Origin: an uncultured Gammaproteobacteria bacterium
GTDB taxonomy: Bacteria; Patescibacteriota; Patescibacteriia; JAHIZJ01
Reading direction: 5' to 3'
NCBI GenBank assembly: GCA_964371245.1
Contig: CAYJKP010000001.1
Span: 123,042-187,041, forward strand
DNA: 64,000 nucleotides
Position 1 is the first letter of the stretch; each line of letters starts with the position of its first letter. The position numbers were made by a program, and so were the translations under genes. Below the pieces are notes generated by a model. The model saw only the letters and a list, made by a program, of their open reading frames with translations, had not been told where the DNA came from and ran no database searches. Shown here piece by piece: positions 3,861 through 40,835 of the stretch.

Positions 3861-3861
3861 T

Positions 3862-10334: not shown

Positions 10335-10346
10335 GAGGATATAAAA

Positions 10347-10380
10347 AAACAGGTTGGAACGCTACATCGCCTGTTTTTTT
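10347..10380. terminator. putative bidirectional terminator (weak stem between an A-run and a T-run)
   Basis: aaaaaaacagg...cctgttttttt immediately after the dsbA-like stop. Confidence 0.3.
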
Positions 10381-10472
10381 GGTAATAAAATAGCAGGCGA
10401 CTATCTCTTCGGACGCGAGTCCTAAAGAGACAGCCAACCTGCCGTGACTGAAAAGATCAGATCAGACGCGTA

Positions 10473-25595: not shown

Positions 25596-26720
25596 ATGGG
25601 TCTATTTGCGAAAAGATTGAGTTATATCGGCATTGATATTGGCACTGCCGGTATTAAAATTGTCGAATTATTGAATGATCAGGGCAAACCGCGCCTGGCT
25701 ACGTATGGGTATCTCGATGAGCCGATTAATGTGGTTCGGAGCGATTCGCCGGAGGCGCACGCGAAGGCCGTTCAGGTGATTAAAGAGATATTTAAACAAG
25801 CCAAAGTCGGTACGAATCGCGTCATTTCCGCCTTGCCCAGCTTTTCCGTCTTCAGCGCGATTATCAGTCTGCCAAACATGTCCCGTAAGGAGCTTGTTTC
25901 AGCCGTCCGGTGGGAAGCAAAAAAATTCGTGCCCATGCCGATTGAGGAAATGATATTGGACTGGAAAGTACTCGATGAACAAACGAATGACGGGGCGCCG
26001 TCGAAAGCCGAGTCAGCGCCAACGGATAAGAAAGCAGGCGAGCCAGCGGCACCAGGGAAAAATTTAAACATTTTACTAACAGCCGCGCCGCGCAACCTCG
26101 TTCAACGGTATCTCAATATATTTAAAGAGCTCAACGTCAAACTGGTCGGCCTTGAGACGGAGGCGTTCGCGCTCGAACGGTCATTGATCGGGCACGATAA
26201 ATCGGCCGTCATGATTGTCGATATCGGTGGTCTGAACACGAATGTCTGCGTTATGCGTGACAGCATTCCGCTTTTGAATCGGAGCATCGACGTCGGCGGG
26301 GAAACGATCACCCGGACAATTGCGAACGGATTAAACGTCGATTTGGAACGCGCGGAACAGTTCAAACGCGATTTTGGCATGTCGACGGATGAGTCCGGCG
26401 GACAGCAGCAGATTCCGAAAACGATCGAATTCGTTATCAGTTCGATTGTCAACGAAATAAAATACTGTTTTAATCTCTACCACAACCAATCGCTCGGACC
26501 GACCGACGCGAACAAGGCGATAGAGAAGGTGATATTAATCGGCGGCTCCGCATTTTTACCGTCGTTACCAGAGTATCTTTCCAAGGTCTTGAATATGCGT
26601 GTCTATATCGGCGATCCTTGGGCGCGGGTCGCCTACCCAGAAGAGCTGAAGCCGGTTCTGACCGAACTCGGTCCGAAGCTGGCTGTTGCCATTGGCTTAG
26701 CGATGAGAGAAATATATTAA
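25596..26720 (+). CDS. pilM: type IV pilus assembly protein PilM (actin-like ATPase fold)
   Basis: N-terminal 'IGIDIGTAGIKIVEL', ASKHA-fold layout, ~370 aa; followed by pilN/pilO. Confidence 0.85.
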   Translation: MGLFAKRLSYIGIDIGTAGIKIVELLNDQGKPRLATYGYLDEPINVVRSDSPEAHAKAVQVIKEIFKQAKVGTNRVISALPSFSVFSAIISLPNMSRKELVSAVRWEAKKFVPMPIEEMILDWKVLDEQTNDGAPSKAESAPTDKKAGEPAAPGKNLNILLTAAPRNLVQRYLNIFKELNVKLVGLETEAFALERSLIGHDKSAVMIVDIGGLNTNVCVMRDSIPLLNRSIDVGGETITRTIANGLNVDLERAEQFKRDFGMSTDESGGQQQIPKTIEFVISSIVNEIKYCFNLYHNQSLGPTDANKAIEKVILIGGSAFLPSLPEYLSKVLNMRVYIGDPWARVAYPEELKPVLTELGPKLAVAIGLAMREIY

Positions 26721-26729
26721 AAAAAACCT

Positions 26730-27905
26730 ATGGTAGACATCAATTTACTCGACGACACCACGGGTGAGGGGGATGAGAATAAGAATAAAAAGGCGAAAAA
26801 ACCTCCCGAACGGATAGAATATACGAAACCGTCGATCGAGCCGAAAGAAAACGAACAAGACGCAAAAGTAAAAAGTGGTTTGCTGGGCGGAATATTCAAG
26901 AAAAAAACCGTCTCGACAGCGGGCGCAGAATTGCCACCACCGACACCTTTATCTCGACCAACGGCAAAGCCGATCGAGACTCGTTCAGTACCGAGAGAAA
27001 CACCGGCTGTCACGAGCGAGAGTCTGCCGTCGACGAAGCCGAAAACAGGGATTTTTGGAAACTGGTTTGGTCGCCGGCCAGCCCCAGCAAATCCGCCGAC
27101 TTCAGCAACAACACCGAGTCTTCCAGGTGGGAGTGCCGAGGCGCGGTTTCGAGCGTCCTATGCCCAGAAAGAAAAGGTGAAAAAGACAGATAGCCAGGTG
27201 CTGGAAGAAAAGGTAATCTCATCCAAACAACCACGCGCGTTGCCGGTCGAAGAGCCGCCGACAGAAGAGAAGTCGTCATTCCTTGACGTCAACCTTATGC
27301 CGGCCGATCTCATGGTCGAGCTTGAGCCGAGAAAGAAATTGTTACTGTATGCGATTGTCACTGGAATTTCCATCGCATTTGTGGCGGCGATCTATTTTGG
27401 CCTGCAATTCTATGAAAGCCGGATACAAAAAGATGTCGAACAAACCTCGGGACAGATAGCAGAAGTGGAGAAAAGTATTGCCGCTCTCAGAAAAGAGCAA
27501 TCGGCGGCGATCCTCTTAAAATCACGCACTGATCAGGTAAAGGAAGCCTTAGACAAACATGTTCACTGGACGAATTTTTTCAGCAAACTCGAGGCCAACA
27601 CGATCAGTGATGTCCAGTATGATAGTTTTGCCGGGTCGTTTGCGGGCGGAAGCAATCCCACGTTTTCATTAAATGCGGTTGGTCGTGATTATAGCTCTAT
27701 CGCACGCCAAATTAAAGCTTTTGAGGATCCAAAGGCAGCCGACTTCATTGCCAGCGTGCGCGTCGACCGCGGCGAACGGACGATTCCCCAAACCGCTGAT
27801 GAAAAGGAGTATGTCCGATTTGGCATCCAGTTTACTGTCTTAGAAAGTCTCTTTTATGACACCGAGAACAGTGTTAGCTCGACCGGTGTCGGAGGGGAGG
27901 AATAA
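26730..27905 (+). CDS. pilN: PilN-like pilus assembly protein with a long disordered N-terminal extension
   Basis: Starts MVDINLLDD (INLL PilM-binding motif), single TM (LLLYAIVTGISIAFVAAIYFGL), then a coiled-coil/PilN-like periplasmic part. ~190 aa of low-complexity sequence sit between the motif and the TM. Confidence 0.6.
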   Translation: MVDINLLDDTTGEGDENKNKKAKKPPERIEYTKPSIEPKENEQDAKVKSGLLGGIFKKKTVSTAGAELPPPTPLSRPTAKPIETRSVPRETPAVTSESLPSTKPKTGIFGNWFGRRPAPANPPTSATTPSLPGGSAEARFRASYAQKEKVKKTDSQVLEEKVISSKQPRALPVEEPPTEEKSSFLDVNLMPADLMVELEPRKKLLLYAIVTGISIAFVAAIYFGLQFYESRIQKDVEQTSGQIAEVEKSIAALRKEQSAAILLKSRTDQVKEALDKHVHWTNFFSKLEANTISDVQYDSFAGSFAGGSNPTFSLNAVGRDYSSIARQIKAFEDPKAADFIASVRVDRGERTIPQTADEKEYVRFGIQFTVLESLFYDTENSVSSTGVGGEE

Positions 27906-27909
27906 TACC

Positions 27910-28620
27910 ATGTCGACTGCATCACAATTAGGCAAAACAGTTCTCTATCTATTCTTCAAGAAACACAAGATTGTTTCAGGCATATTAGTAGTGCTTATTC
28001 TCACGATCGGATCATTGGCGTTTCTGGTACCAAAATATCAAGTGATCCGCAATCAAGGATTGCTTAGCTCCGGGAATAAGAAGAAACAACTGACCGAGCG
28101 GCAAAATTATCTTGATCGGCTCCAAAAAATGGTTAATCTCTATCGCGGTATCCAAAAAACCGACCTGGATAAGCTCCAGCAGATCCTCCCGGACAGTCAA
28201 GAGGTTCCGGAGCTTTTCGTAATGATTGATCAGATCGGCAAGGATCTCTCGAGTAAAGGCGTGAACGTAACGATCACGCGTATCTCGCTGACGCCCCAAA
28301 CACTCGCGTCGACCAATGTCAGCGCGCCGGCAGGTGATTATAATCAAAATCGCCAAGGCGGAGTTTCGAGCCTGCTGAGCCCGATAACGGGGACAAATCC
28401 CGCACTGGCGACGCCGTCAGCCGTAAAAACGTACCAAATCGGAAAAATCAACGCAGTAGTTGACATGTCGGTCCGTGACCTTACCTACACAGCGTACAAG
28501 AAAATACTCGAAAGCCTGGAAAATAATATGCGCCTGTTTAATATAACCAGCATTAATTACCTGCCGGGCGCTGAGTCAGTGTCATTTAATCTCGAAACCT
28601 ATTATCTCTCATCGTCATAA
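27910..28620 (+). CDS. pilO: PilO-like pilus assembly protein
   Basis: N-terminal TM (ILVVLILTIGSLAFLV), coiled coil, position after pilN. Start ATG 27910 with GGAGG RBS; the ORF-track start at 27856 overlaps pilN. Confidence 0.55.
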   Translation: MSTASQLGKTVLYLFFKKHKIVSGILVVLILTIGSLAFLVPKYQVIRNQGLLSSGNKKKQLTERQNYLDRLQKMVNLYRGIQKTDLDKLQQILPDSQEVPELFVMIDQIGKDLSSKGVNVTITRISLTPQTLASTNVSAPAGDYNQNRQGGVSSLLSPITGTNPALATPSAVKTYQIGKINAVVDMSVRDLTYTAYKKILESLENNMRLFNITSINYLPGAESVSFNLETYYLSSS

Positions 28621-28638
28621 TTGGAGGAGGTTTAAACT

Positions 28639-28956
28639 ATGGCCCTTGTACAAAAAAGATTAGCCCCAAAAAAGAGAAACCTTCTGGCCATCATTGTCGT
28701 GGCATTTATTGGCATATCAGCCGTGCTGGTGATACAGAATTATTGGAAGCCGGGTGTCACGACACCGACTGATGACGGTTCATCCGAAACCCTCAACGTC
28801 CGCGACGTGCCTATTTACACCGATCTCGGCGTCGATGTCTTACAGGACGTGCGTTGGCAGGAGCTGAAAATGCCAAAGATGACACTCCCGATCGAGCCCG
28901 GCGTGGTCGGTCGCGCGAACCCCTTTGTTGACGCGCCGCCAAAATCGACCCAGTAA
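28639..28956 (+). CDS. small membrane-anchored hypothetical protein (position analogous to pilP)
   Basis: TM (LLAIIVVAFIGISAVLVI) followed by ~70 aa; RBS GGAGG upstream. Confidence 0.4.
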   Translation: MALVQKRLAPKKRNLLAIIVVAFIGISAVLVIQNYWKPGVTTPTDDGSSETLNVRDVPIYTDLGVDVLQDVRWQELKMPKMTLPIEPGVVGRANPFVDAPPKSTQ

Positions 28957-28970
28957 TACATCGCAAACAC

Positions 28971-30737
28971 ATGGGCGACAACCCGATCGCGAATAATCCA
29001 TCCGCCAGACTCAATTTTTTAGACTACCTTGTCAAAGGCAGTCTTGCGACGGCTGAGCAGATTGAGGAATGGAAGCGCAACGCTCGTTCAAAAAACATGA
29101 GCGTTATTGAGATAATCGAAGACGCCCAGGTTATTAAAGACGACGCGCTGCTCCAAGCGAAAAGCGAAGCCTACTCGCTGCCATCGGTCGATCTTTTTGG
29201 TCGCGTGGTCACGCCCGATGTGTTGCGCGTTATCCCTCAGGAAATCGCCACGAATTATAAAATCATCTGTTTCGCGCAAAGCGGCAAAGAGGTGAGCATC
29301 GGCATGGTTGACCCTGGCAACTATAAAGCGATCGAAGCGGTTGAATACATCGCCCGGGAAAATCACTATCAGGTCAAATATTTCATCATTAGTGGAAATT
29401 CATATAAATTCCTCCTCCGTCAATACGAAAGCTTGAGCTCGGAAGTAGCCGAAGCGCTCGAGGGCGCGGGAAATGAGATAGGCGTCGAAGTGGGCGAAAA
29501 GGTAGAAATCGCTGAAAAAGGTTTTGAAGAAGTAGTTCGTTCAGCGCCGGTGGCGAAAATGGTGAATGTTATTTTGGAGCATGCCGTTGAAGGGAAGGCC
29601 TCAGATGTCCATATTGAACCGCTGGCCGAAGACACCCGGGTACGGTATCGGATCGATGGTATTTTACATACTTCGTTGATTTTACCGAAAACGGTTCATT
29701 CCTCGATTGTCGCGCGCATCAAAGTATTGGCCAACCTGAAAATCGACGAAACACGCGTACCGCAAGACGGACGGTTTCGAAGAAAGTTTGAAACGGGCGA
29801 TGTTGATTTCCGTGTTTCTACGTTGCCCGTCGTCGGGAACGAGAAGGTGGTGATGCGGATACTCGACACCTCGTCAAACGTTCTTGATTTGGAACGGCTT
29901 GGCTTCTGGGGCAAGAGCTTGGAAAAAATGATTGATAATATCGACCGGCCGCACGGCATGTTCTTGATTACTGGGCCGACCGGTTCCGGAAAATCGACCA
30001 CCCTCTATGCCTTGCTGCATATATTGAACGAGGATTCCGTCAATATTATCACCCTCGAAGATCCGGTCGAGTATTACCAAAAAGGGGTCAATCAATCTCA
30101 GGTGAATCCCGAAGTCGGCCTCACCTTCGCGCGCGGCTTACGGTCTATTCTGCGTCAGGATCCGGACATTATCATGGTTGGCGAGATACGCGACAGTGAA
30201 ACCGCTGAATTGGCTGTCCATGCCAGCTTGACGGGTCATATCGTGCTCTCGACGCTGCATACCAACGATGCCTTCGGCGCGGTGCCGCGCTTGGTCGACA
30301 TGAAAATAGAACCCTTTCTATTAACCTCATCGCTCAACCTGGTCATGGCCCAACGCTTGGTCCGACGCCTGTGCGATTATTGCAAAGAGGAGATGGTGCT
30401 GCCGAAGCGCTATGAAGATGAGGCCTTCCGGACATTATCGCTCTTGCCAAAAGACGCCATGCCGAAGAATTTCAAACTGGCCAAGCCGATGAAATTCTAT
30501 AAAGGGAAAGGTTGCGCTCGCTGCGAAAATACCGGCTACAAGGGCCGCGTCGCCTTAGCCGAGATACTCGAAGTCACCGAGGAATTGAAACGTATCATTT
30601 TGGCTGGGTCAGACCAGGATAAGATCAAAGAAGAGTTCAAGCGACAAGGGATGCACTCAATGCTCCAGGATGGTTTTATCAAGGCGATCCAGGGTCTGAC
30701 CACGATCGAAGAAATAATGAAAGTTACCAAAGAATAA
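28971..30737 (+). CDS. pilB: type IV pilus assembly ATPase PilB (GspE family)
   Basis: T2SSE_N-like N-terminus, Walker A GPTGSGKSTT, Asp/His boxes, tetra-Cys motif (CDYC...CARC). Confidence 0.9.
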   Translation: MGDNPIANNPSARLNFLDYLVKGSLATAEQIEEWKRNARSKNMSVIEIIEDAQVIKDDALLQAKSEAYSLPSVDLFGRVVTPDVLRVIPQEIATNYKIICFAQSGKEVSIGMVDPGNYKAIEAVEYIARENHYQVKYFIISGNSYKFLLRQYESLSSEVAEALEGAGNEIGVEVGEKVEIAEKGFEEVVRSAPVAKMVNVILEHAVEGKASDVHIEPLAEDTRVRYRIDGILHTSLILPKTVHSSIVARIKVLANLKIDETRVPQDGRFRRKFETGDVDFRVSTLPVVGNEKVVMRILDTSSNVLDLERLGFWGKSLEKMIDNIDRPHGMFLITGPTGSGKSTTLYALLHILNEDSVNIITLEDPVEYYQKGVNQSQVNPEVGLTFARGLRSILRQDPDIIMVGEIRDSETAELAVHASLTGHIVLSTLHTNDAFGAVPRLVDMKIEPFLLTSSLNLVMAQRLVRRLCDYCKEEMVLPKRYEDEAFRTLSLLPKDAMPKNFKLAKPMKFYKGKGCARCENTGYKGRVALAEILEVTEELKRIILAGSDQDKIKEEFKRQGMHSMLQDGFIKAIQGLTTIEEIMKVTKE

Positions 30738-30749
30738 TCGTTCATCCGT

Positions 30750-31175
30750 ATGGCACCGAGCGAGAAAACAACAAAAAAAGAGAGTCTGAGTCGAGGCAAA
30801 CGGAAAATCCTGCTCGTTGAGGACGACACCTTTATTTCCGGAATGTATATTGCCAAGCTTGCTCTCGAAAACTTCGATGTCCTGCTGGCAACTGACGGGG
30901 AGATGGGCTTAGAATTCGCTCGGAAACAAAAGCCCGATTTAATCCTGCTTGACCTGATGCTGCCGAAGCTTGACGGCTACGGCGTGCTCAAGGTGTTAAA
31001 GAAAAGTCCGGCCCTCGCCAAGATTCCGGTCATACTCCTGACGAACTTAAATCAGCAGGAATCGATCGACAAGGCCAGGAAATACCAGATTGAAGATTAT
31101 CTCATCAAAGCGCATTTCATGCCGTCCGAGGTCATCGAAAAGGTGAAAGTCGTGTTGCGTAAATACCGACGCTAA
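30750..31175 (+). CDS. CheY-like single-domain response regulator (REC only; PilH/PilG-like position)
   Basis: KILLVEDD...DLILLDLMLPKLDG...K conserved REC residues; 141 aa; sits between pilB and pilT. Confidence 0.8.
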   Translation: MAPSEKTTKKESLSRGKRKILLVEDDTFISGMYIAKLALENFDVLLATDGEMGLEFARKQKPDLILLDLMLPKLDGYGVLKVLKKSPALAKIPVILLTNLNQQESIDKARKYQIEDYLIKAHFMPSEVIEKVKVVLRKYRR

Positions 31176-31180
31176 AAACC

Positions 31181-32257
31181 ATGCCAGACACAACCACCCA
31201 ACTCGGTTTATCAAAACTGCTCAGCCAAGTGGCCGAATACAAGGCCTCGGCCTTGCATTTATCTGTCGGCAATCCGCCGATTCTCCGGGTCGATGAAAAA
31301 CTTCTGCCGATCGAAAGCGAAGGCATCATGACACCCGACCGGATAGAGAAGATCGCGTTTTCGTTCTTAAACGCTGATCAAAAAGCCGAGCTTGAGGCGC
31401 AGAAAGAAATTGTCTTCACATATTCCTTCGAGGAACGAGCGCGTTTTAAAGTGAGTATTTTCTATCAAAAAGGCTATCTGTCCGTCTCCTTGCGCTATAT
31501 CCCGACCGTGGTGCCGACGCTCCATGAGCTCGGCCTGCCCTCGATCGTCGAACGGTTTACTCATCTGAAAAAGGGCTTGGTGCTGGTGACCGGCCCCTTC
31601 GGCTCAGGCAAGACAACAACACTGGCCTCACTCGTTGATGCTATCAATCAGAGTCGGTCAGAATACATCATTTCCATTGAACGGCCAATCGAGTATCTTT
31701 TCACAAATAATAAAAGCATTGTCGAACAGCGCGAGGTCGGTCGAGACACGCAGAGTATCCAGAAGGCGCTCTTCAATATCCCGCAAGAGGACATGAATGT
31801 GGTGATGATTTCCGAGATGGAAACACCCGAAATTATGGAGCTTGTCTTCACGGTTGTTGAATCAGGCCGCCTGGTGTTCTCTTCGATGAATACCGACTCA
31901 GCCTATAAGACGATTGAGCGGATCATCAATAGCTTCCCAGATCAAAAACACGAGCAAATACGTCTCCAATTGGCTGACGCGCTCGAAGGGGTGATCAGCC
32001 AGCGTTTATTGCCGCGCGTCGGCGGTGGGAAAGTTGTGGCGGCGGAAATATTAGTCCCGGCGCCGGCCGTCAAGGCGATCATGAAGGAGGGCTCCATTTA
32101 TCAGCTCAATACAATACTCCAGACCTCTCGAGAAGAGGGGATGATCTCGCTTGATCGCGCACTGGCCGACCTCGTGAAAGCGGGGGACGTCCTGATGGAA
32201 GACGCGCTGGCCCATGCCGTCGATAAGAACGGTTTTAAAATGATGATTCGTATATAA
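31181..32257 (+). CDS. pilT: twitching-motility pilus retraction ATPase PilT
   Basis: Walker A GPFGSGKTTT, PilT-type Asp/His box, 358 aa. Confidence 0.9.
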   Translation: MPDTTTQLGLSKLLSQVAEYKASALHLSVGNPPILRVDEKLLPIESEGIMTPDRIEKIAFSFLNADQKAELEAQKEIVFTYSFEERARFKVSIFYQKGYLSVSLRYIPTVVPTLHELGLPSIVERFTHLKKGLVLVTGPFGSGKTTTLASLVDAINQSRSEYIISIERPIEYLFTNNKSIVEQREVGRDTQSIQKALFNIPQEDMNVVMISEMETPEIMELVFTVVESGRLVFSSMNTDSAYKTIERIINSFPDQKHEQIRLQLADALEGVISQRLLPRVGGGKVVAAEILVPAPAVKAIMKEGSIYQLNTILQTSREEGMISLDRALADLVKAGDVLMEDALAHAVDKNGFKMMIRI

Positions 32258-32260
32258 CCT

Positions 32261-33469
32261 ATGGCAATTTTTGATTATCGAGCTAAAGATCACCAAGGCA
32301 ACACTGTTTCCGGCGTGATCGAGGCGCCGACTGAGAACGTGGCGGCCGAACTTTTGACCGAGCGGCGGTATATTATTTTAAATCTCGCGCCGCGACGAAA
32401 AGCCGTCCTCTTTCAGAGCTCGCTCGGGTTTTTGAATCGCGTCCCCATGCGGGAAGTCGTGATCTTTTCGCGTCAGCTCGCGGTCATGATCAACACGGCC
32501 GTACCAATCGTCCAGGCGCTTCGGATCCTCGTGAAACAAACCAAGACGGTTGCTTTTAAAATTATTATCTCGGAGATTGCCGACGAGGTTGACGGTGGGG
32601 CAAAACTCTCAACCGCGCTGAGCCGGTACCCGCAAGTGTATTCAGAATTTTTCGTACACATGATTCGATCGGGTGAAACAACGGGCAAACTCGATGAAAC
32701 CCTGAATTATCTCGCTGACCAGCTGGAGAAGGACTATGATCTCAACAGCCGGATCAAGGGCGCGATGATCTACCCGGCCTTCATCCTGACGGCTATTGTC
32801 GGTGTCGGTATCGTGATGATGATTTATGTCATACCAAAACTGACCGCCGTGTTGGAAGAAAGCGGGACCAAACTTCCCTGGTCGACAAAGCTCATGATTA
32901 ATACGAGCAAATTTCTGAAACAGGACTGGTGGCTCGTGGTCTTGATACTGATTGGGCTCGGTTTTCTCTATCGTCTGATTACGCACACCAACGCTGGCCG
33001 GCGGCAAATGGATGCGATGAAGATACGGATGCCGATCTTTGGCAATTTGTTCCAAAAAATATATTTGACCCGGTTTACGCGGAGCATTGCCACGCTCATC
33101 ATGGGCGGCATCCCGCTGTCCCGGACCCTGGAAATAGTGGCTGACATCGTTGGAAATAGCGTCTATAAGGAGTTGACCCTCGATACAATCGCGGTGATCG
33201 AGGATGGCAGCTCGATCGCCACCTTGTTCGCGAAGAGCCGTGATGTCCCGCCGATGCTGACGCAAATGATGACGGTCGGCGAGCAAACCGGGAAGCTCGA
33301 CGTGATTTTGTCGAAATTGTCAGATTTTTATTCAAAAGAGGTGGATAATCTCATCCGCAATCTCGTCTCGTTGATGGAACCGGTGATCATGTTGGTTTTG
33401 GCGATCGGCGTCGCCGTACTGGTCATGGCCATATTGTTACCCATGTATAACCTATCGTCGGCGATATAA
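32261..33469 (+). CDS. pilC: type IV pilus inner-membrane platform protein PilC (GspF family)
   Basis: Two GspF repeats, TM helices, 402 aa. Confidence 0.9.
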   Translation: MAIFDYRAKDHQGNTVSGVIEAPTENVAAELLTERRYIILNLAPRRKAVLFQSSLGFLNRVPMREVVIFSRQLAVMINTAVPIVQALRILVKQTKTVAFKIIISEIADEVDGGAKLSTALSRYPQVYSEFFVHMIRSGETTGKLDETLNYLADQLEKDYDLNSRIKGAMIYPAFILTAIVGVGIVMMIYVIPKLTAVLEESGTKLPWSTKLMINTSKFLKQDWWLVVLILIGLGFLYRLITHTNAGRRQMDAMKIRMPIFGNLFQKIYLTRFTRSIATLIMGGIPLSRTLEIVADIVGNSVYKELTLDTIAVIEDGSSIATLFAKSRDVPPMLTQMMTVGEQTGKLDVILSKLSDFYSKEVDNLIRNLVSLMEPVIMLVLAIGVAVLVMAILLPMYNLSSAI

Positions 33470-33493
33470 TATTTGCATTGGCTAAATTTGACA

Positions 33494-33522
33494 TTGTTCT
33501 TTTCCAATAATTGTGCTATAAT
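33494..33522 (+). promoter_or_regulatory. putative promoter of pilin gene 1 (-35 TTGTTC, 17-nt spacer, extended -10 TGcTATAAT)
   Basis: TATAAT at 33517-33522 preceded by TGn; ~115-nt 5' UTR ending in an AAAGGGGG RBS. Confidence 0.45.
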
Positions 33523-33637
33523 ATAGCATAGTGAGCTGTGATGATAACGGATATAGGTCGATTTATAATAATTTACCATCATGCTTTTAGGCTGGTTCTA
33601 GAGTGGCCTAAAGGCCTCAACGAAAGGGGGTGAACAA

Positions 33638-34183
33638 ATGAAAAACAAAAAAGGTTTTACTTTGATTGAGTTACTCGTGGTCATCGCGATCATCGGGTTA
33701 CTCGCCTCACTCGCTCTCGTCGCCTTAGGCGGCGCGCAGAAGAAAGCACGTAATTCCAAGCGCATGGCTGACATCCGGACGCTCCAATCGGCGATCGAAC
33801 TTTGTATCAACGAAGGCGGTCGCGTACCGACCGACCCAGCAGACTGGGGAGGCCTAGCGGATGCTGTTTGTGCGGAAGCACCTGCAACTTCACCAACAGT
33901 CGGACAATTTCTAGCATCAACTGCGGTTCCAACGCCACCTCAATCGTGCACGGCTTGGGCGACGGGTGATTGTTATGCGTATTGTGCGCAACCAGCTAAT
34001 AGCATCTATCTATTGGCTGCCCGCATGGAAGGCTCTGACGACATATCGGGTGACAACGACACTAATACCCTCTATGCCGCAGGTGAATGCATGAATAGTA
34101 ACGACAATCCGAATGCCGGTGCCCTCTTGGCTGCCTTTTGCGATGATGGCGGCACGAACTCAATGTTCTGTCTCGGTAAATAG
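33638..34183 (+). CDS. pilA: type IV pilin (prepilin with class III signal; probable major pilin 1)
   Basis: MKNKKG|FTLIELLVVIAIIGLLASLAL prepilin leader and N-methylation/cleavage motif; C-terminal region has 8 Cys and ends in FCLGK. Confidence 0.85.
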   Translation: MKNKKGFTLIELLVVIAIIGLLASLALVALGGAQKKARNSKRMADIRTLQSAIELCINEGGRVPTDPADWGGLADAVCAEAPATSPTVGQFLASTAVPTPPQSCTAWATGDCYAYCAQPANSIYLLAARMEGSDDISGDNDTNTLYAAGECMNSNDNPNAGALLAAFCDDGGTNSMFCLGK

Positions 34184-34203
34184 GATCGGATAGCAAATAC
34201 TAT

Positions 34204-34230
34204 AAAAGGGGACTCGTTCCCCTTTTATAG
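34204..34230 (+). terminator. rho-independent terminator after pilin 1 (AAAAGGGGA-ctcgt-TCCCCTTTT + T)
   Basis: 9-bp stem followed by TTTTAT. Followed by GATATAAT (34256-34263), a likely -10 for pilin 2. Confidence 0.6.
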
Positions 34231-34286
34231 TGCCTATGTTCTCGTTCCTGAATCTATGATATAATCATATCATGAGTACCCACAGG

Positions 34287-34844
34287 ATGAAGACGCGGAT
34301 ATCACATGGATTTACCCTAATAGAGCTGCTTGTCGTCATTGCGATCATCGGCCTTTTGTCGACATTAGCCCTCATGGCATTCCAGGGCGCACAGAAGAAA
34401 GCGCGTGATGCCAAACGCTGGTCAGATGTTCGGGCGATGCAGTCGGCGATTGAGCTGTGCATCAATGAGGGCGGGGCCGCGCCAGCTGCAGCGGCCACCT
34501 GGTCAGGCATGATGAATGAATCCTGCGGCGGCACTACGCTACTCAAGAATTATTTCGCGAATGGCTCTCTCCCAGAACCGCCACGCGGAGAGACGTGCGC
34601 GGCAACAATGGCGGACGAGGAAGATTGTTATATGTACTGCAAAAAGACAAGCCGAGACAACTATATTCTCTACTCAAACTATGAGGGAACAGCACCGGCT
34701 GGCGGCGAAAATGGAGCCGTGAGTAATTACGATCCGGGAACCGAATGCATTTTAAGCAATAATGACCGTCCAAACGCGCTGCCAACCTGTTCGCCGATCG
34801 CTGGCGGCACGTTCTGCCTGGGTAAGCTGGATGGGAATATATAA
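34287..34844 (+). CDS. pilA: type IV pilin paralog (probable major pilin 2)
   Basis: MKTRISHG|FTLIELLVVIAIIGLLSTLAL. The first ~65 aa are nearly identical to pilin 1, the C-terminus diverges but keeps 8 Cys and the FCLGK end. An in-frame ATG at 34272 is an alternative, possibly leaderless, start. Confidence 0.8.
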   Translation: MKTRISHGFTLIELLVVIAIIGLLSTLALMAFQGAQKKARDAKRWSDVRAMQSAIELCINEGGAAPAAAATWSGMMNESCGGTTLLKNYFANGSLPEPPRGETCAATMADEEDCYMYCKKTSRDNYILYSNYEGTAPAGGENGAVSNYDPGTECILSNNDRPNALPTCSPIAGGTFCLGKLDGNI

Positions 34845-34901
34845 ATCCTAGAAGAATCACAAATATATTGACGGGAAATAAATATTTCGCGTCATTTTAT
34901 T

Positions 34902-35426
34902 GTGACACAAAGGAGAATCTATCAAACCGAATACCCGTATTTCGTGACGTTTCGGACGAGCGGCGATAACCCGTTTTTTGAAGAGACGAAACACGCGGCA
35001 TCGTTATCGCGTATTATATTCCAGGCCGGGAAATTAAAAGGATATGACATTTTGTCGTATCAAATCATGCCGGATCATGTGCATTTGTTGATTCATAAAA
35101 TGCCCCAAGCGCACCTCTCCGTGGGTGCGCGCGGTTGTTTAAATGTGAGCGCGGGCGCGGAGACCCGCGCTCGGGGGTATAACATTTCCCAATTCATGTA
35201 TTCGGTGAAATCATATTTTATCAGACAAATACGAGATAAAGATGAAATTATGGACTCGATTTGGCAAAAACGCTTTTACACCCGGATCGTCAATACCCAT
35301 AAATATCTCGAAACAGCGGTGCAATATATCAAACATAACCCGGTCAAAGTATCATTGCCCAAGAAATATTACCGTGCGCCGTATCAATATGTCGATTGGG
35401 AGGCAATCAAGAAGATAATCGGGTAA
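34902..35426 (+). CDS. tnpA: IS200/IS605-family Y1 (HUH) transposase TnpA / REP-associated tyrosine transposase-like
   Basis: HUH motif 'IMPDHVHLLIH' and catalytic-Tyr region 'AVQYIKHNPVK' in a 174-aa protein. No tnpB partner. Confidence 0.7.
   Translation: MTQRRIYQTEYPYFVTFRTSGDNPFFEETKHAASLSRIIFQAGKLKGYDILSYQIMPDHVHLLIHKMPQAHLSVGARGCLNVSAGAETRARGYNISQFMYSVKSYFIRQIRDKDEIMDSIWQKRFYTRIVNTHKYLETAVQYIKHNPVKVSLPKKYYRAPYQYVDWEAIKKIIG
35109..35172. repeat. two GC-rich perfect palindromes (GCGCACC-n8-GGTGCGC and GAGCGCGGG-n8-CCCGCGCTC) embedded in-frame in tnpA
   Basis: Seen directly. Local GC far above the rest of tnpA. Corresponds to an extra ~21-aa segment (VGARGCLNVSAGAETRARGYNI) relative to the usual IS200 TnpA spacing after HVHLL. 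Confidence 0.55.
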
Positions 35427-35530
35427 TTACCATTATTGACTTCCATGGCCACCAATGGTACACATAAGCCGCTGTCCGATAGCCGGATGGCGTGATCATT
35501 CACATTTTCCCAAGGGAGGGGCTGAACCCC

Positions 35531-37432
35531 ATGAAGACTCAACCGTCTTCCCAAATCGGTCGTCTCGCGGCCGTGGCCTGTTTTCTATTCGTCGTTGCCG
35601 GGCTGGGGCTGGTTTCCGCGCCGGTCTGGGCGCTGACCTGGACGCCGGACCTGCGCCTTTCTATTCCGCCCGATTCGGTCGGTGTTACGCCGGCGATTGC
35701 CAGCGGGCAGGACGGTCATGTGCACGTGGTGTGGGTCGGGGCACCCGGTGATGGCTGGCTCCTCAGCTACAAGCGCTGGGATGGAGCAGCGTGGTCGCTG
35801 ACCCAAGGTTTGGCTTTTAGCCAATATCGTCTGGAACGCCCCTCGATTGCCGTTGATGTGCGCGGATACGTTCACGTCGTCTTCGATGCTCAGATGACGG
35901 AAGAGCAGGATGGCGTCTACTACATGCGTTGGGACGGGATTTCCTGGAGCCAAGTCTATCGGATTAGCGATGACGAGACGGGAGGAATATGCCCGTCCAT
36001 CGCCACAGATACAAATGGGTATGTGCATGTCGCGTGGTATGGATCGGAGATTTACTACAAACGCTGGGACGGGGAGTCGTGGACACTAACCATGCAGCTC
36101 AATGATCAGCACTACTACGTATCAAACAGTCCGTGCCTGACCGCAGATGTGAACGGCAATCTGCACGCCGCGTGGATTACATGGCTGGGTACTAGTCAAC
36201 CCCGGCAGCTTTACTACAAACGCTGGAACGGATGGTCGTGGACGGCGGACTCACTTCTTGTGGACACGCCATGGGCTGAAGCTCCTGCCATCACCGCTGA
36301 TCCAGTTGGAAACGTACATCTGACATGGATTGACGGACGGATTCAATTTGACCCTCAGATCATGTACAAGCGGTGGGATGGGGCTACCTGGAGTGGGGAT
36401 GAGTCGCTGTACTATGGCATGTCGCGCATGTTTCAGCATCCGACAATCACTGCCAGCGATGACGGCAATGTTCACGTCGCCTGGACCCAATACCCTTTCG
36501 GAGGCGGGGATTCGCAACTTCTCTACAAGCTTTGGAATGGGGTGGCATCGGAGACTGAACGCACCCTCGTTTCCGGATCGTTTTCCCTGAACGGCGCGGC
36601 GATGGCTACGGATACCTATGGTAACGTCCACCTCGTATGGCAGGACGGCCGTCACTACAACACCTCCATCTACTACAAGATGCGGAAACACTGCTTGGAT
36701 GGAGATGAGTACGAAGAATGCCGATGGTACACGCCTGACCCGCTGTTCTACGAGCGCTACTCCGCTAATGCCGATACGCTATCCCAGCTGCCGGGCGTGC
36801 CGGTCTTCTACGACTCGACGCGGGTGACGATCAACCGGGGGCCGAATGACCGGTTCTATATCTCGGGCGAGCAGTACGCGCTGGCGGACTGGATCTGCGA
36901 CGACAAGCTCTACATCGACGGCGCTGACGCCGGACTGGGATTCGCGGGGGTGGCTGACTCTGCTCTCACGCTCTGCCAGCCGATCGAAGACGTGTTGATG
37001 TCAGTACCGCCGCGCGACGTGACCGACTTCATCCCGGAAGGCGATCACTGCGTGACCTTCAAGCTGGCCGACACCCAGCGCGCTATCCTCGGCAACACCA
37101 GGATCTACCTGGTTTGGCAGGATGTGTCCGGCGTGGCTGACGGTGACGCACGAGTCAGCCCGGTGCTTTCCGTGTCGCCGAATCCGGCCCAGCGATCGGC
37201 GCTATTCGAGCTGAGCGTTCCGGCCACCGGCCAGTATGCCCTGGACATCTACTCGGTTGACGGCCGGCTGGTGCGTTCGTATCCGGCGGTAAGACTGACG
37301 GCCGGCGAACAGCACCGCTGGACCTGGGACGGCCGTGATCAGCTCGGTGAAACGGCCGGACAGGGGATGTATTTCGGCGCGGCCCGTTCATCTGCCGGCC
37401 AGACCGTCAGGAAGTTGCTCATCGTCAGGTAG
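35531..37432 (+). CDS. secreted beta-propeller repeat protein with a T9SS-type C-terminal sorting domain (Por secretion CTD-like); GC-rich, probably horizontally acquired
   Basis: Signal peptide (MKTQPSSQIGRLAAVACFLFVVAGLGLVSAPVWA). Eight repeats of 'hVHVVW...YYKRWDGxSW'. The final ~85 aa (VSPNPAQRSALFELSVPATGQYALDIYSVDGRLVRSY...WDGRDQLGETAGQGMYFGAARSSAGQTVRKLLIVR) match the T9SS CTD / FlgD-Ig-like consensus. ~62% GC vs ~50% for neighbours. ATG 35531 with GGGAGGGG RBS; ORF-track start 35492 is likely an extension. Confidence 0.7.
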   Translation: MKTQPSSQIGRLAAVACFLFVVAGLGLVSAPVWALTWTPDLRLSIPPDSVGVTPAIASGQDGHVHVVWVGAPGDGWLLSYKRWDGAAWSLTQGLAFSQYRLERPSIAVDVRGYVHVVFDAQMTEEQDGVYYMRWDGISWSQVYRISDDETGGICPSIATDTNGYVHVAWYGSEIYYKRWDGESWTLTMQLNDQHYYVSNSPCLTADVNGNLHAAWITWLGTSQPRQLYYKRWNGWSWTADSLLVDTPWAEAPAITADPVGNVHLTWIDGRIQFDPQIMYKRWDGATWSGDESLYYGMSRMFQHPTITASDDGNVHVAWTQYPFGGGDSQLLYKLWNGVASETERTLVSGSFSLNGAAMATDTYGNVHLVWQDGRHYNTSIYYKMRKHCLDGDEYEECRWYTPDPLFYERYSANADTLSQLPGVPVFYDSTRVTINRGPNDRFYISGEQYALADWICDDKLYIDGADAGLGFAGVADSALTLCQPIEDVLMSVPPRDVTDFIPEGDHCVTFKLADTQRAILGNTRIYLVWQDVSGVADGDARVSPVLSVSPNPAQRSALFELSVPATGQYALDIYSVDGRLVRSYPAVRLTAGEQHRWTWDGRDQLGETAGQGMYFGAARSSAGQTVRKLLIVR

Positions 37433-37508
37433 GCCGGAGGCCGGGCAGACCACCAGAATTCGTACGCATGGAGAAATCCATGCTTTTTCATTTGCCAAAG
37501 CGCCGGTA

Positions 37509-37577
37509 GCCCGAAATCTGTGTTTCGGGCGCGGTTGTATATATTAATACAAACACGCCCCGGCATGCGCCGGGGCG
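37509..37577. repeat. pair of GC-rich perfect hairpins (GCCCGAAA-n6-TTTCGGGC; CGCCCCGGC-atgc-GCCGGGGCG) at the downstream edge of the GC-rich gene
   Basis: Seen directly; the second is followed by TGGATTTG. Could be a terminator and/or REP-like boundary. Confidence 0.5.
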
Positions 37578-37647
37578 TGGATTTGCGTCTCCACGGAGAT
37601 CGTAAATCCGGTGTGACAAATATTAATAAGTTTGGTATAATATACTC

Positions 37648-38067
37648 ATGGCATGGCCTCATCCAGGATCGCTGAAAGTACGTCTCGTGGTCTATTGCGT
37701 GATCATTGCGGGTATCCTTACCGTACTCTTTTTGCGTGTTGGGTATGAGCAAGCGCGCGCCCGAGATCTCCAGCGGATCGCGGATGCGTTGATCATCCGT
37801 GGCGCGTTTGAACGGATGTATCTGCACGATCGAGGCTATGCAGCGGCGGCTGATCACGGCTGCGACAAAATCGGCGTTTCCATCCGGCAATGCAATTTAC
37901 GCACCTATTACCGGGAAATAAACGAACTCGTTGACCCGGGAAAACGGGAGTATGTCGTTACCCAGGTTCCAAGCGCGACAAATTACGAGATTACCTTCCA
38001 GCTCGAGCTTGATCATCCCAACCTGGCAAAAGGGAAGCATACGGTTACGGCCGACGGGATACACTAA
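37648..38067 (+). CDS. hypothetical membrane-anchored protein
   Basis: TGgTATAAT -10 element at 37633-37641, N-terminal TM (VVYCVIIAGILTVLFL), 139 aa. Confidence 0.45.
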   Translation: MAWPHPGSLKVRLVVYCVIIAGILTVLFLRVGYEQARARDLQRIADALIIRGAFERMYLHDRGYAAAADHGCDKIGVSIRQCNLRTYYREINELVDPGKREYVVTQVPSATNYEITFQLELDHPNLAKGKHTVTADGIH

Positions 38068-38125
38068 AGCCGTATAAATTTTCTAGATCCAACAACCTTT
38101 CGTTTGCGAGCCTGAAAAATAAGCA

Positions 38126-38887
38126 ATGTCAATGATTGTTCTCACCACCCTCATCGTCTTCATCGTCGGGGTCAGCATCGGGAGTTTTTTAAATGCGGTC
38201 ATCTGGCGTCTCCATACGCAGGAAGGTTTTTTGCGCGGCCGGTCGTATTGTCCGAAATGCCGGGCGACGATTCGGGCCAAGGATCTCGTTCCGCTGGCCA
38301 GCTTTTTTCTCTTGCGCGGCAAATGCCGTGACTGCGGCAAAAAAATATCATGGCAATATCCGCTGGTGGAACTCGCGGCTGGTCTCGCCTTCGTCGCGCT
38401 GTTCCTGGTTTATGGTTTTACCGACGCATTTTTCGTGTACGCGGTTGAGACCGCTTTTCTTATTATTGTTTTTGTCTTTGATCTCAAGCATTATCTGATT
38501 CTTGATCGGGTCATGCTACCGGCCGCCGTCGTTGGCCTGCTGGGCAGTCTTTTGCTCGGCGTGGACCCAGTCAAAATCCTGATCGGCGGTATCGCGGGCG
38601 GCGCGTTTTTTCTGCTCCAATACCTCGCCTCACGCGGAAAATGGATCGGCGGCGGCGATATCCGTCTCGGCGCGGTCATGGGTTTAATGCTTGGGTGGGA
38701 CAAATTGCTAGTGGCGATGTTTATCAGTTATTTAGTCGGTTCGCTGGTCGGCCTTGGCTTAGTGGCGAGCCAGCGCAAGAATTGGCAGAGCCGTTTACCG
38801 TTTGGCGTATTTTTAAGCGCGGCCACGTTTCTGACCTTTATTTGGGGCGGTGATATTATCGCCTGGTATGTAAAATTCCTATCATAG
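38126..38887 (+). CDS. pilD: prepilin peptidase PilD (A24 family, with N-terminal zinc-finger/methyltransferase-loop region)
   Basis: GSFLNAVIWRL, CPKC...CRDC tetra-Cys, conserved Asp-containing TM core (GGGDIRLGAVMG). Confidence 0.85.
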   Translation: MSMIVLTTLIVFIVGVSIGSFLNAVIWRLHTQEGFLRGRSYCPKCRATIRAKDLVPLASFFLLRGKCRDCGKKISWQYPLVELAAGLAFVALFLVYGFTDAFFVYAVETAFLIIVFVFDLKHYLILDRVMLPAAVVGLLGSLLLGVDPVKILIGGIAGGAFFLLQYLASRGKWIGGGDIRLGAVMGLMLGWDKLLVAMFISYLVGSLVGLGLVASQRKNWQSRLPFGVFLSAATFLTFIWGGDIIAWYVKFLS

Positions 38888-38900
38888 TGTATAATCATCA

Positions 38901-39524
38901 ATGATGAAAGTGTTAGGAAAAAAAGGCTTCACGCTTATCGAAATGATTTCCGTCGTTGCGATTATTGGCATTTTAACGACGGTTGGCGTGGTTGCATTTC
39001 TGAGAAATCGCCAGTCAGCCGATCTTGATCGGAGCGCCTCAGAACTGGCCAGCAATATCAGAAAAATACAAGGCTACACCCGGGCAGGACGGAGCGAGGG
39101 TGCAAATGTGCCGCGCGCCTACGGTTTAATGATCGATCTGACCGGCGGATGGGCCGACACATATACGTTGTACGCTGATTTCGGCACCAGTGGTGATGAT
39201 TTTTATTTCGAGCCGGCACCGACCGGCCCGGATGTCCAGATTGATAATTTTACTCTGGCGTCAAATACGCGGATAACGAGTGTCGAAATAAGTAATTTGC
39301 GAGAATCCTTCGGCCGCATTGATTTTGGTTTTTTTGTGCCCTCATCTGATTTGAAGGCAATGGGGACAAGCGTCGGCGGCATACCGCCAGATGATTCGAG
39401 TATTTTTGATACTGGTCCGATCGAGGTAAAAATTACCGTTACACACGCGCAAGCCAACAAGTCAAAGGTCGTGCGGTTCAACGGCGGCTCGCTTGGCGGC
39501 GCGACAGTGGAGGATGGCTCATGA
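38901..39524 (+). CDS. minor pilin / pseudopilin (prepilin-type N-terminal cleavage-methylation domain)
   Basis: KG|FTLIEMISVVAIIGILTTVGV leader and motif. Confidence 0.75.
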   Translation: MMKVLGKKGFTLIEMISVVAIIGILTTVGVVAFLRNRQSADLDRSASELASNIRKIQGYTRAGRSEGANVPRAYGLMIDLTGGWADTYTLYADFGTSGDDFYFEPAPTGPDVQIDNFTLASNTRITSVEISNLRESFGRIDFGFFVPSSDLKAMGTSVGGIPPDDSSIFDTGPIEVKITVTHAQANKSKVVRFNGGSLGGATVEDGS

Positions 39525-40192
39525 AACGACCAATGATCAAAAAAAACCAAACAGGGGTTACGTTACTGGAGGTTGTGGTGGCCATCTTTGTCATTACGGT
39601 CGGCTTGATATCAGCACTGGCTCTGATCATCTCAAGCATCACCGGCGCCCGGACGAGCAAGTACCAGCTGGTGGCCGGCAACTTAGCGCGGCAGGCGATC
39701 GAAGTGGTGCGCACCCAGCGCGACGGCAATTGGCTTGAAATCGAATCAAACAGTCTCGACCCAAGTTTGTGGGACCAAAACCTCTCTGGAAACGGGATGA
39801 TCTACACGGGAATAATCAATTTTCAAGATGATCCAGCGCTCGCCGATTATATGAAGTGGACCATTCTCTATGATTCGACCTATAATTTTTCTGACAATCC
39901 GTCGCAATTAAAGGTTTATTATGTCGACCACGGTTCCTGGAAAATCTATAATCAATATATGCAAGCCAACCCGCCGGGGTTGTCCGAGAGCGTTTTTCGG
40001 CTCGCTGCGTCGACAAAGCCAATCTGTATAGAAAACGGTATTGAATCGACGGTAGGAAATGGCTTCAGTTGTGAAACGACGGTCCCGCCGAAAACAAAAA
40101 TCGGCATCCAGATAAAAGCCACGGTAAAATGGCTTGAGTCGGGGATCGAACGATCGTATGAGCAAGAAGAAAAAATATATAATTGGAAATAA
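39521..40192 (+). CDS. minor pilin / pseudopilin (PilV-like)
   Basis: QTG|VTLLEVVVAIFVITVGLISAL; overlaps the previous stop by 4 nt. Confidence 0.7.
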   Translation: MKRPMIKKNQTGVTLLEVVVAIFVITVGLISALALIISSITGARTSKYQLVAGNLARQAIEVVRTQRDGNWLEIESNSLDPSLWDQNLSGNGMIYTGIINFQDDPALADYMKWTILYDSTYNFSDNPSQLKVYYVDHGSWKIYNQYMQANPPGLSESVFRLAASTKPICIENGIESTVGNGFSCETTVPPKTKIGIQIKATVKWLESGIERSYEQEEKIYNWK

Positions 40193-40193
40193 G

Positions 40194-40835
40194 ATGCGCT
40201 GGCTTCGCGATAAAAAAGGATTAAGCTTGGTCGAAATGATCGTCGTGGTCGGGCTTTTTGGCATTTCTATGTCAGTCTCAATGACGATATTGGTAAATGC
40301 CTTGCAGAACCAGCGCTCGATTCGGGCGGAACAAAAGGTCATCAGTTCCGCGCGCGACGCGCTCGAGGTACTCGCCCGAGAAATACGGCTTGGCTATATC
40401 GATTATGACACACATTATACAGGCGGCGCGCTAAATTCCGTCCAGGACAATCTCTGGGTAACAACCGGGAGTGGAAATAATTATAATTTTCGGATAACCC
40501 AAGAAGCCGGTGGTGATCCGATTACCGGACAGCTCGTGGCTGATGATGGTATGGTGGCGTCGCCGCTGAGCAGCACGGATATTAGAATTGATGCGATCAA
40601 GTTTTATGTCCGGCCGATCTCTGATCCCTACTATATCTTTTCTTGCACCGACAATAGCCAATGCGATCCGAACATCATACCGGTGAAGGCTCCGGGGGTG
40701 TGTGTAAACAACATTTGCGAATTGGAAGACCAGCAGCCACGCGTGACGATTGTTTTAAACGCGACTAACCGCGGCCAGGGTTTTGCGAAAGTCGAGCTGC
40801 AAACAACCGTGGCCGTACGCACGTATAAACGGTAA
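40194..40835 (+). CDS. minor pilin / pseudopilin (PilW-like)
   Basis: KG|LSLVEMIVVVGLFGISMSV. ATG 40194 immediately after the previous stop; the ORF-track start 40134 is an overlapping extension. Confidence 0.7.
   Translation: MRWLRDKKGLSLVEMIVVVGLFGISMSVSMTILVNALQNQRSIRAEQKVISSARDALEVLAREIRLGYIDYDTHYTGGALNSVQDNLWVTTGSGNNYNFRITQEAGGDPITGQLVADDGMVASPLSSTDIRIDAIKFYVRPISDPYYIFSCTDNSQCDPNIIPVKAPGVCVNNICELEDQQPRVTIVLNATNRGQGFAKVELQTTVAVRTYKR

Follow-up and report, generated by a model that had tools for sequence, protein, structure and literature searches.

The locus and the propeller gene

The 64-kb window analysed here, that is the whole stretch of 64,000 nucleotides taken from contig CAYJKP010000001.1, includes a type IV pilus cluster, and among the genes of this cluster lies one that encodes a beta-propeller protein with a C-terminal domain (CTD) of the type known from the type IX secretion system (T9SS). 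A preliminary description of the window had taken this propeller gene for cargo from a high-GC donor, inserted in the pilus locus next to a transposase gene. The gene is instead native, vertically inherited and long resident in the type IV pilus cluster of a small Patescibacteria clade. Its location was described correctly, since the locus is a type IV pilus locus and the adjoining gene, at 34902-35426, encodes a Y1 transposase resembling the REP-associated tyrosine transposases (RAYT-like).

25596..40835, + strand: type IV pilus cluster, recognised by Pfam and NCBIfam matches on the called genes
34902..35426, + strand: RAYT-like Y1 (IS200-type) transposase gene, 44% GC

The cluster is arranged in the order pilM, three unnamed genes, pilB, a response regulator gene, pilT, pilC, two pilin genes, the RAYT-like gene and the propeller gene, which are followed by a gene for a 139-aa protein, the prepilin peptidase gene and the minor pilin genes. 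The transposase gene product matches PF01797 with 44.5 bits (cut-off 23) and reaches 78.1 bits with the model of REP-associated tyrosine transposases (NF047646), whose cut-off is 80.

The propeller gene itself is a single, long open reading frame (ORF) on the + strand that extends from a GTG codon at 35492 to 37432, and it was judged to be real. The likely start is the ATG at 35531, which is also the start in public gene calls and gives a protein of 633 aa. The signals around the start are the following, L010 being the locus of a sister genome.

35436..35464, + strand: possible promoter of the gene's own, consisting of TTGACT, a 17-nt spacer and TACACA, with a TG one base upstream of the -10 element
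35514..35521, + strand: ribosome-binding site GGGAGGGG, 9 nt 5' of the ATG at 35531 and conserved in L010

The GGA.GG core of the ribosome-binding site was found in all four lineages compared (4/4). The TTGAC core of the promoter-like element is invariant in L010 and in a deeper lineage, L011, and reads TTGGC in another, L094; a -10-like element occurs upstream of the gene in all four. A scan for consensus promoters made no call at 35436..35464, and the element is regarded as a putative promoter of the propeller gene.

Conservation among Patescibacteria

Orthologs in three further Patescibacteria lineages share this region of the pilus cluster, where they are placed among pilin genes and upstream of the prepilin peptidase gene, and the gene order of the whole cluster is kept in L010, L011 and L094-L096. 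The identity of each ortholog to the window protein, the state of the transposase site and the GC contents are as follows.

L010 (sister genome): amino-acid identity 78.5%; transposase present at the site; ortholog GC 59.5%, locus GC 51.7%
L011: amino-acid identity 39%; transposase absent from the site; ortholog GC 58.7%, locus GC 53.6%
L094-L096: amino-acid identity 39%; transposase absent, the propeller gene standing between two pilin genes; ortholog GC 55.3% and locus GC 49.3% (both for L094)

The transposase is present in L010 and is missing from the same slot in L011 and L094. Since these two lineages have the propeller gene without the transposase, the latter is the later arrival and its adjacency is coincidental. 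A fifth ortholog (P0003) is found on a 3.2-kb contig. A neighbour-joining tree built from the propeller domain only unites the five Patescibacteria orthologs in one clade with a bootstrap value of 76.

The divergence of the gene is that of its neighbours. Its synonymous divergence (dS) from L010 is 0.58, most flanking genes having values of 0.31-0.70, and its ratio of nonsynonymous to synonymous divergence (dN/dS) is 0.22, against 0.015-0.09 for the core pilus genes. The former value implies that the gene has diverged together with its flanking genes, and the latter that it is held by purifying selection. Among the encoded proteins, the pilins share 61-84% identity with those of L010 and 46-53% with those of the deeper lineages (48-53% in L011), while the core pilus proteins are 96-98% identical to those of L010 and about 70% identical to those of L011 and L094 (about 72% in the comparison with L011). 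The propeller protein thus diverges at the pace of the exposed components, the pilins, and not at that of the core. That the gene is real, keeps its place in the locus, has diverged alongside its neighbours and is held by purifying selection can be taken as shown, as can the folds of the domains described below.

The jump in composition at the borders of the gene had also raised the suspicion of an assembly chimera, in which a fragment of a high-GC genome would have been misjoined into a Patescibacteria contig. This jump is the sole support for a misjoin. Records of 20 contigs contain the exact 633-aa protein, and the longest contigs measure 0.9-1.2 Mb. Nine contigs were compared, drawn from several ENA metaSPAdes assemblies and from Logan assemblies of separate runs; they stem from different samples and two assembly pipelines and are 99.96-100% identical to the window over their overlap with 33001-40000, and eight of the nine span both junctions. 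One of them is 918 kb long with 48x coverage. The arrangement is equal in other species from unrelated studies, and the conserved ribosome-binding site, promoter-like and terminator elements run on into the flanks. With the same junctions recovered in this way, a chimera can hardly be given any credence.

The host is a Patescibacterium. The proteins that neighbour the ortholog in the sister genome have been deposited as 'Patescibacteria group bacterium' under the consecutive accessions MFA5106776 to MFA5106784, which mirror the gene order. The window carries an S12-to-SecY ribosomal operon in which, at ~62960-63810 (L099 19656-20499), the S5 gene is directly followed by that of L15, the L30 gene being absent. 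A missing L30 gene is a hallmark of the bacteria of the candidate phyla radiation (CPR), and the operon is consistent with a CPR/Patescibacteria genome. Among 15 billion collected proteins, none has an identity of 90% or more to the elongation factor EF-Tu of the host, which indicates that sampling of the lineage is sparse.

Base composition and origin of the gene

The propeller gene is the highest-GC stretch of 1.9 kb in the window (z = 4.2) and also its top tetranucleotide outlier, with a correlation of 0.34 to the window signature where other stretches reach 0.82 +/- 0.09. The second strongest tetranucleotide outlier is the gene of a giant protein (21229-25476) at the head of the pilus locus. 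The GC content of the propeller ORF is 59.4%, compared with 50.9% for the whole window, and that of the segment 35455-37640 is 58.5%; the anomaly that had been pointed out is therefore genuine, while the value of ~62% that had been attached to it is too high. Along the gene, GC varies by thirds (60%, 54.5% and 63%). A sharp step in composition had been placed at ~35455, and a step is indeed seen there, but its sharpness is partly owed to the low GC content of the transposase gene upstream.

The anomaly is not peculiar to the window. The orthologs in L010, L011 and L094 are all elevated in GC over their own locus, the GC of the gene following that of the host, and the GC content at third codon positions (GC3) of the L011 and L094 orthologs stays within the values seen for native neighbours, pilC and pilT among them. 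Lys (1.7%), Asn and Ile are scarce in the window protein, whereas Gly, Ala, Asp and Arg are abundant and Trp makes up 4.4%. Its amino-acid composition combined with native codon usage predicts a GC content of 55.7-56.6%, which covers about half of the excess. When the gene was recoded with native codons, its tetranucleotide correlation to the host was 0.41 +/- 0.06, compared with 0.69-0.83 for native proteins recoded likewise. Because the recoded gene still deviates, most of the oligonucleotide anomaly stems from the protein sequence. The compositional anomaly is a stable property of the gene family, to which GC-rich synonymous codons contribute in this lineage.

The region between the propeller gene and the next gene was of interest since two GC-rich perfect hairpins had been thought to mark a boundary there.

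37466..37490, + strand: intrinsic-terminator-like hairpin GCATGGA-gaaa-TCCATGC followed by a T run, conserved in L010 at 11938-11960
37509..37579, no strand assigned: two perfect GC-rich hairpins (37509-37530 and 37554-37579) in a variable spacer
37613..37641, + strand: promoter-like element GTGACA, 17-nt spacer and TATAAT with a TG, agreeing with the consensus at 11/12 positions and conserved in L010

The terminator-like hairpin is likely the true 3' end of the gene, and the promoter-like element would serve the downstream 139-aa gene and the prepilin peptidase gene. Both GC-rich hairpins were found where they had been reported, and the segment folds with z = -6.3. They do not bound the gene, as they lie in a spacer between the conserved terminator and promoter, and this spacer is the only stretch that does not align with L010, in which it is longer and holds different hairpins. 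The hairpins are a variable intergenic insert or extra terminators, not the border of an island. Their identification as a repetitive extragenic palindromic (REP) element or a miniature inverted-repeat transposable element (MITE) was considered and found unsupported, each hairpin being single-copy in the window and in all related loci and all Rfam matches of 37509..37579 being below threshold.

Outside Patescibacteria, the nearest relatives among the matches listed are secreted propeller proteins of high-GC bacteria (P0008, P0009 and P0010), one of them labelled Ca. Eisenbacteria. They belong to the same SBBP/BNR-like propeller repeat family, with an identity of 35-39% in the propeller, and have the CTD as well. 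They differ in that they are devoid of the middle domain described below, are encoded in genomes of 62-69% GC and have their genes outside pilus loci. Matches to the CTD only, again among those listed, came from Eisenbacteria, Krumholzibacteriia and Calditrichia, and a search of genome contigs with a four-sequence profile gave, among the matches listed, distant relatives only, the species of the window not being one of them.

These data allow the origin of the gene to be weighed. A recent acquisition from a high-GC, T9SS-bearing donor of the Fibrobacterota-Chlorobiota-Bacteroidota (FCB) group, arriving with or beside the transposase and bordered by the hairpins, would agree with the position of the gene as top GC and tetranucleotide outlier, its GC-skewed synonymous codon usage, the T9SS-type CTD, the Y1 transposase that adjoins it and the high GC content of the genomes that harbour its nearest relatives outside Patescibacteria. 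It is already contradicted by synteny and dS. Orthologs stand at the same place in three lineages with an identity of only ~70% in the core pilus proteins, and the transposase is missing from two of these lineages; the gene has the dS of its flanks; the orthologs are monophyletic; and the best identity outside Patescibacteria, at 35-39%, extends over the propeller alone. Moreover, the terminator and promoter on either side of the hairpin spacer are conserved in the sister genome but the spacer itself is not, and neither direct repeats nor other island features were seen. Recent transfer is accordingly highly improbable. In contrast, relatives with the same CTD in high-GC genomes make it plausible that there was a single ancient transfer, from a high-GC, CTD-bearing donor of FCB type (Eisenbacteria-like) into the common ancestor, and we would place such an event slightly on the probable side of even. 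The idea of a donor of high-GC, FCB type survives in this weak, ancient sense only.

Domain architecture of the propeller protein

The protein had been described as a signal peptide, a propeller and an Ig (immunoglobulin)-like C-terminal domain. This layout was borne out, and a jelly-roll domain was recognised in addition between the last two.

35531..35632, + strand: signal peptide, aa 1-34, cleavage predicted after VWA
35633..36694, + strand: seven-bladed beta-propeller, aa 35-388, the fastest-evolving part
36695..37165, + strand: middle beta-jelly-roll domain, aa 389-545, the most conserved part
37166..37432, + strand: C-terminal Ig-like domain (T9SS type A CTD / FlgD-Ig), aa 546-633, and the stop codon

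The N-terminus is Sec-like by its sequence features, in agreement with the signal peptide noted before. A basic n-region is followed by a hydrophobic helix, placed at aa 8-25 by the model, and an A-x-A-like site immediately precedes 'LTW'; the five orthologs share this arrangement. The N-terminus shows neither the prepilin G/FTLIE motif nor a lipobox.

The propeller was modelled by AF2 with pLDDT values mostly of 87-97. Eight repeats had been counted previously; both the model and the motifs, with seven 'HVxW' strands and six 'Y[KM][RL]W[DN]G' motifs, give seven blades, and an N-terminal 'TWTPDLRL' strand packs on the last of them. The nonsynonymous divergence (dN) of the propeller from L010 is 0.168, and its identity to the deeper orthologs is 30-33%. 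Among sequence models, SBBP (PF06739) reaches 28 bits for the whole protein against a cut-off of 20.5, no individual repeat passing. The PDIAV motif-containing lipoprotein model NF053835 gives 39.6 bits against a cut-off of 90; the protein has no lipobox, and only the 'P-x-I-A-x-D' repeat type is common to the two. A replacement of the propeller from a high-GC donor was also considered, prompted by the 39% identity of P0009, which exceeds the 30-33% of the deeper orthologs; it was rejected in view of the monophyly of the orthologs in the propeller-only tree.

In structure, the propeller is closest to the Photorhabdus lectins PLL, PLL2-5 and PHL (Foldseek, target-normalised TM ~0.70, E ~1e-13; PLL and PHL are the best hits at TM 0.70 and E 1e-13). 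Seven Trp-rich blades are seen in both. The lectins, however, are single-domain soluble proteins with an identity of 11-16%, and the likeness is one of fold.

The middle domain has five Cys residues that are invariant among four of the orthologs. Its fold is like that of carbohydrate-binding modules and resembles the accessory sugar-binding domains of glycoside hydrolase family 2 (GH2) enzymes and of PNGase F. A homolog search with the alignment of the middle domain retrieved 6 fragments only; the domain is also found in non-Patescibacteria proteins, where it precedes the same CTD. As a separate observation, many non-Patescibacteria homologs of the middle domain (P0086-P0131) do not end in the Ig-like CTD but in '...PRDALDALPxCP', which could be an unrecognised C-terminal sorting or processing motif.

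The fold of the propeller and that of the middle domain both bring in a serious rival to the adhesin proposed below, which is that a protein of the same origin and location is a secreted enzyme (a glycoside hydrolase, a sialidase-like protein or a polysaccharide lyase) trimming the glycans of the host or of its own surface and thereby allowing the pilus or the cell to come into contact. After the lectins, Foldseek matched the propeller to GH145 enzymes, sialidases and PL25 lyases at E ~1e-10 to 1e-11, the homologs carry faint precomputed BNR_4 and sialidase-family Pfam matches, and the middle domain is like those that accompany GH2 enzymes and PNGase F. Nevertheless, the best structural matches are non-enzymatic lectins. 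No sialidase or glycoside hydrolase model of Pfam or NCBIfam was matched at E <= 1 (in hmmscan this included the sialidase/BNR models PF13088 and PF15892, to which the likeness is at the fold level only), and no RIP or Asp-box motif is visible in the ortholog alignments. Conservation among the orthologs falls mostly on the W, G, D, H and Y residues that build the repeat, among which no catalytic motif can be recognised, and no other domain evolves as fast as the propeller, a pattern easier to reconcile with ligand recognition than with catalysis. A role as glycosidase or lyase is, on this evidence, rather unlikely, though it has to be taken seriously.

The C-terminal domain and type IX secretion

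The C-terminal domain ends at the stop codon and was modelled as a seven-strand Ig-like sandwich with pLDDT values of ~79-95 except for the last few residues. Both its placement at the extreme C-terminus and this fold are shared with the T9SS type A CTD (TIGR04183/PF18962) and with the Ig-like domain of FlgD (PF13860), and it also carries the motif pattern PNP...L.IYS.DGRLV...W.GRD..G....G.YF....KLLIVR. In a search with the sequence profile of the orthologs, the best solved structure was the CTD of PorU (6za2, E 3e-7), followed by FlgD at ~1e-4.

The scores, however, straddle or miss the curated cut-offs. With TIGR04183 (cut-off 23), the whole protein scores 18.4 bits and its last 97 aa 23.9 bits; the CTDs of the orthologs score 19.0, 23.0, 25.1 and 18.9, and those of the non-Patescibacteria relatives 23.1 to 26.7, above the cut-off. 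PF13860 is a near miss at 25.2 against 27, and PF18962 gives 12.7 against 27. The C-terminus had been described as matching the Por/T9SS CTD (FlgD-Ig-like) consensus, and the kind of domain was recognised correctly; the match is less clear than had been stated, as the scores of the hidden Markov models are at or below threshold.

None of the other ORFs of the 64-kb window carries the CTD. The remark that nothing else in the window suggests a T9SS holds for its annotated parts: no T9SS component was seen among the Pfam matches of 11-64 kb or in the eight largest ORFs of 1-10 kb, a look-over that left out a few small ORFs. Patescibacteria have genomes of ~1 Mb and no outer membrane, and a T9SS requires an outer membrane. 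In a host without an outer membrane the CTD cannot act as a T9SS signal, and in a lineage expected to be without a T9SS its role is most likely a different one; it more likely acts as a stalk or docking module.

A working T9SS sorting signal, by which the protein would be exported through type IX secretion, could appeal to the tail score of 23.9 and those of two orthologs (23.0 and 25.1), which lie at the TIGR04183 threshold, and to the CTD of PorU as best solved-structure match. Set against the lack of an outer membrane in the host, of any T9SS component in the annotated parts of the window and of a second ORF with this CTD, it is very improbable indeed.

The domain is intact in five orthologs, with a dN/dS of ~0.3. 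A further proposal, which we regard as doubtful, is that a T9SS-type domain has been kept for long in a lineage without outer membrane or T9SS and re-used there as a docking or anchoring module that tethers the propeller and jelly-roll to the pilus or surface; the propeller protein and the giant protein encoded at the start of the cluster would then jointly form an undescribed host-recognition device. No paper linking T9SS-type CTDs with Patescibacteria pili was found in searches of the literature.

Other features of the window

The giant protein (21229-25476) has 1415 aa and comprises an N-terminal hydrophobic segment, a propeller (~aa 360-700), a Cys-rich stretch (~aa 700-870) and a large C-terminal part without a family match.

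22306..23328, + strand: distantly homologous propeller within the giant protein (BLASTP E 1e-8, 23-24% identity)

The resemblance between its repeats and those of the propeller protein, which had been remarked upon as odd, therefore reflects homology. A phylogeny of the repeat domain that included the giant protein was proposed at the time and has been made; the propeller of the giant protein is a distant outgroup in it. A protein of 1342-1426 aa is encoded upstream of pilM in L011 and L094/L095, the position of the giant protein, the likeness being one of size and position.

Within the pilus cluster, a stand-alone response-regulator receiver gene (30750-31175) lies between pilB and pilT and is kept in four lineages. 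The 139-aa protein encoded downstream of the propeller gene (37648-38067) has a single transmembrane helix and, after it, a helix of pilin-like appearance (ARDLQRIADAL...), with neither a G/FTLIE prepilin cleavage motif nor a family match. It is conserved in the pilus locus, with 94% identity to L010 and 53% to L094. A link to the CPR 'Pam' pili was looked into and dismissed as unrelated, the only match being a weak one to PamR (16 bits) on a non-CPR homolog.

The reading frame of the transposase contains a GC-rich double hairpin of its own (35109-35130 and 35147-35172). It lies between the HUH motif and the region of the catalytic Tyr and encodes an insert of ~25 aa, which is conserved in L010 with 91% nucleotide identity.

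Farther upstream, the region 10340-11545 (~1.2 kb), between a DsbA-like gene and recG, has a GC content of 56-62% and no convincing gene. Its only sizeable ORF (10473-11048, - strand, 191 aa, 62% GC) has a GC3 of 72%, the highest of the window, and no Pfam match. The region has no Rfam match at E <= 1, and folding gave z-scores of just -1.1 and -1.9. The genes for a PrgI-family protein (2708-3163) and a TraG/VirB4-like P-loop ATPase (3775-5787), both upstream of the pilus region, point to a module for type IV secretion or a conjugation-like process.

Possible role in host recognition

Patescibacteria are ultra-small bacteria that live in attachment to other microbes, and in finding and binding these hosts their type IV pili play a central part. 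To our knowledge, few of the molecules on which the specificity of these pili depends have been identified, PilX2 of one Saccharibacterium being the exception. In Pseudomonas, the propeller protein PilY1 has a proposed role in recognition by the pilus. PilX2 is likewise a propeller protein encoded in a type IV pilus (T4P) locus; the function of T4P-2 in Nanosynbacter lyticus depends on it, and it has been proposed as the adhesin of this pilus (PMC12206443).

On balance, the product of this native pilus-cluster gene is probably a secreted, glycan-binding adhesin that works with the pilus; its export, its binding of glycans and its cooperation with the pilus are what we infer. As a three-domain protein exported by the Sec pathway and lacking pilin features, it would be secreted or held at the cell surface. 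The propeller and jelly-roll would bind glycans, with the rapidly diverging propeller setting the specificity for the ligand, while the conserved middle domain and the CTD would form a stalk or docking surface. The protein would then act with the pilus in recognising a host or a surface, as has been proposed for PilY1 and PilX2.

The comparison with PilX2 and with PilY1/PilC, the propeller adhesins associated with the tip of type IVa pili, is an analogy and not a statement of family membership. What they have in common is a beta-propeller encoded among the pilin genes of a T4P cluster (in four lineages here), the absence of a canonical prepilin signal and an evolution faster than that of the pilus machinery; PilX2 in addition provides a precedent within Patescibacteria (PMC12206443). 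The differences from PilY1 and PilX2 are that the present propeller belongs to another repeat family (SBBP/BNR-like), that its signal peptide is of the ordinary Sec kind, that a jelly-roll and a T9SS-type CTD are present in addition, and that its putative association with the pilus is read from gene position.

Several observations speak against the view that a native pilus-cluster gene encodes such an adhesin. The link between protein and pilus consists of gene order alone, and the gene is apparently transcribed on its own, from a putative promoter to a terminator. PilY1 (PF05567) and RCC1 were not matched at E <= 1, so there is no sequence relation to PilY1 or PilX2, and the fold searches point to enzymes too (GH145, sialidases, PL25 and accessory domains of GH2). 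The gene context of P0003 may differ from that of the other orthologs. As regards nativeness, the GC3 of the window gene is 70.5%, the second highest among 56 ORFs, and its synonymous choices are nearer to high-GC genome backgrounds than recoding predicts (r 0.50 observed, 0.18 recoded); the residual GC-rich synonymous choice in this lineage cannot be fully explained. Finally, the direction and timing of the proposed ancient transfer depend on few taxon-labelled relatives.

The gene family carries two lessons for the reading of genomes. A strong anomaly in GC and tetranucleotide composition can belong stably to a protein family and need not signal recent acquisition. Similarly, a T9SS-type CTD can persist outside the context of a T9SS, and hence is not evidence of type IX secretion or of recent transfer. 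The protein is a previously undescribed, clade-specific component of a Patescibacteria pilus locus, and its conserved position in the pilus cluster, quick divergence and lectin-like appearance mark it out as a concrete candidate for a factor by which an uncultivated clade may recognise its hosts.

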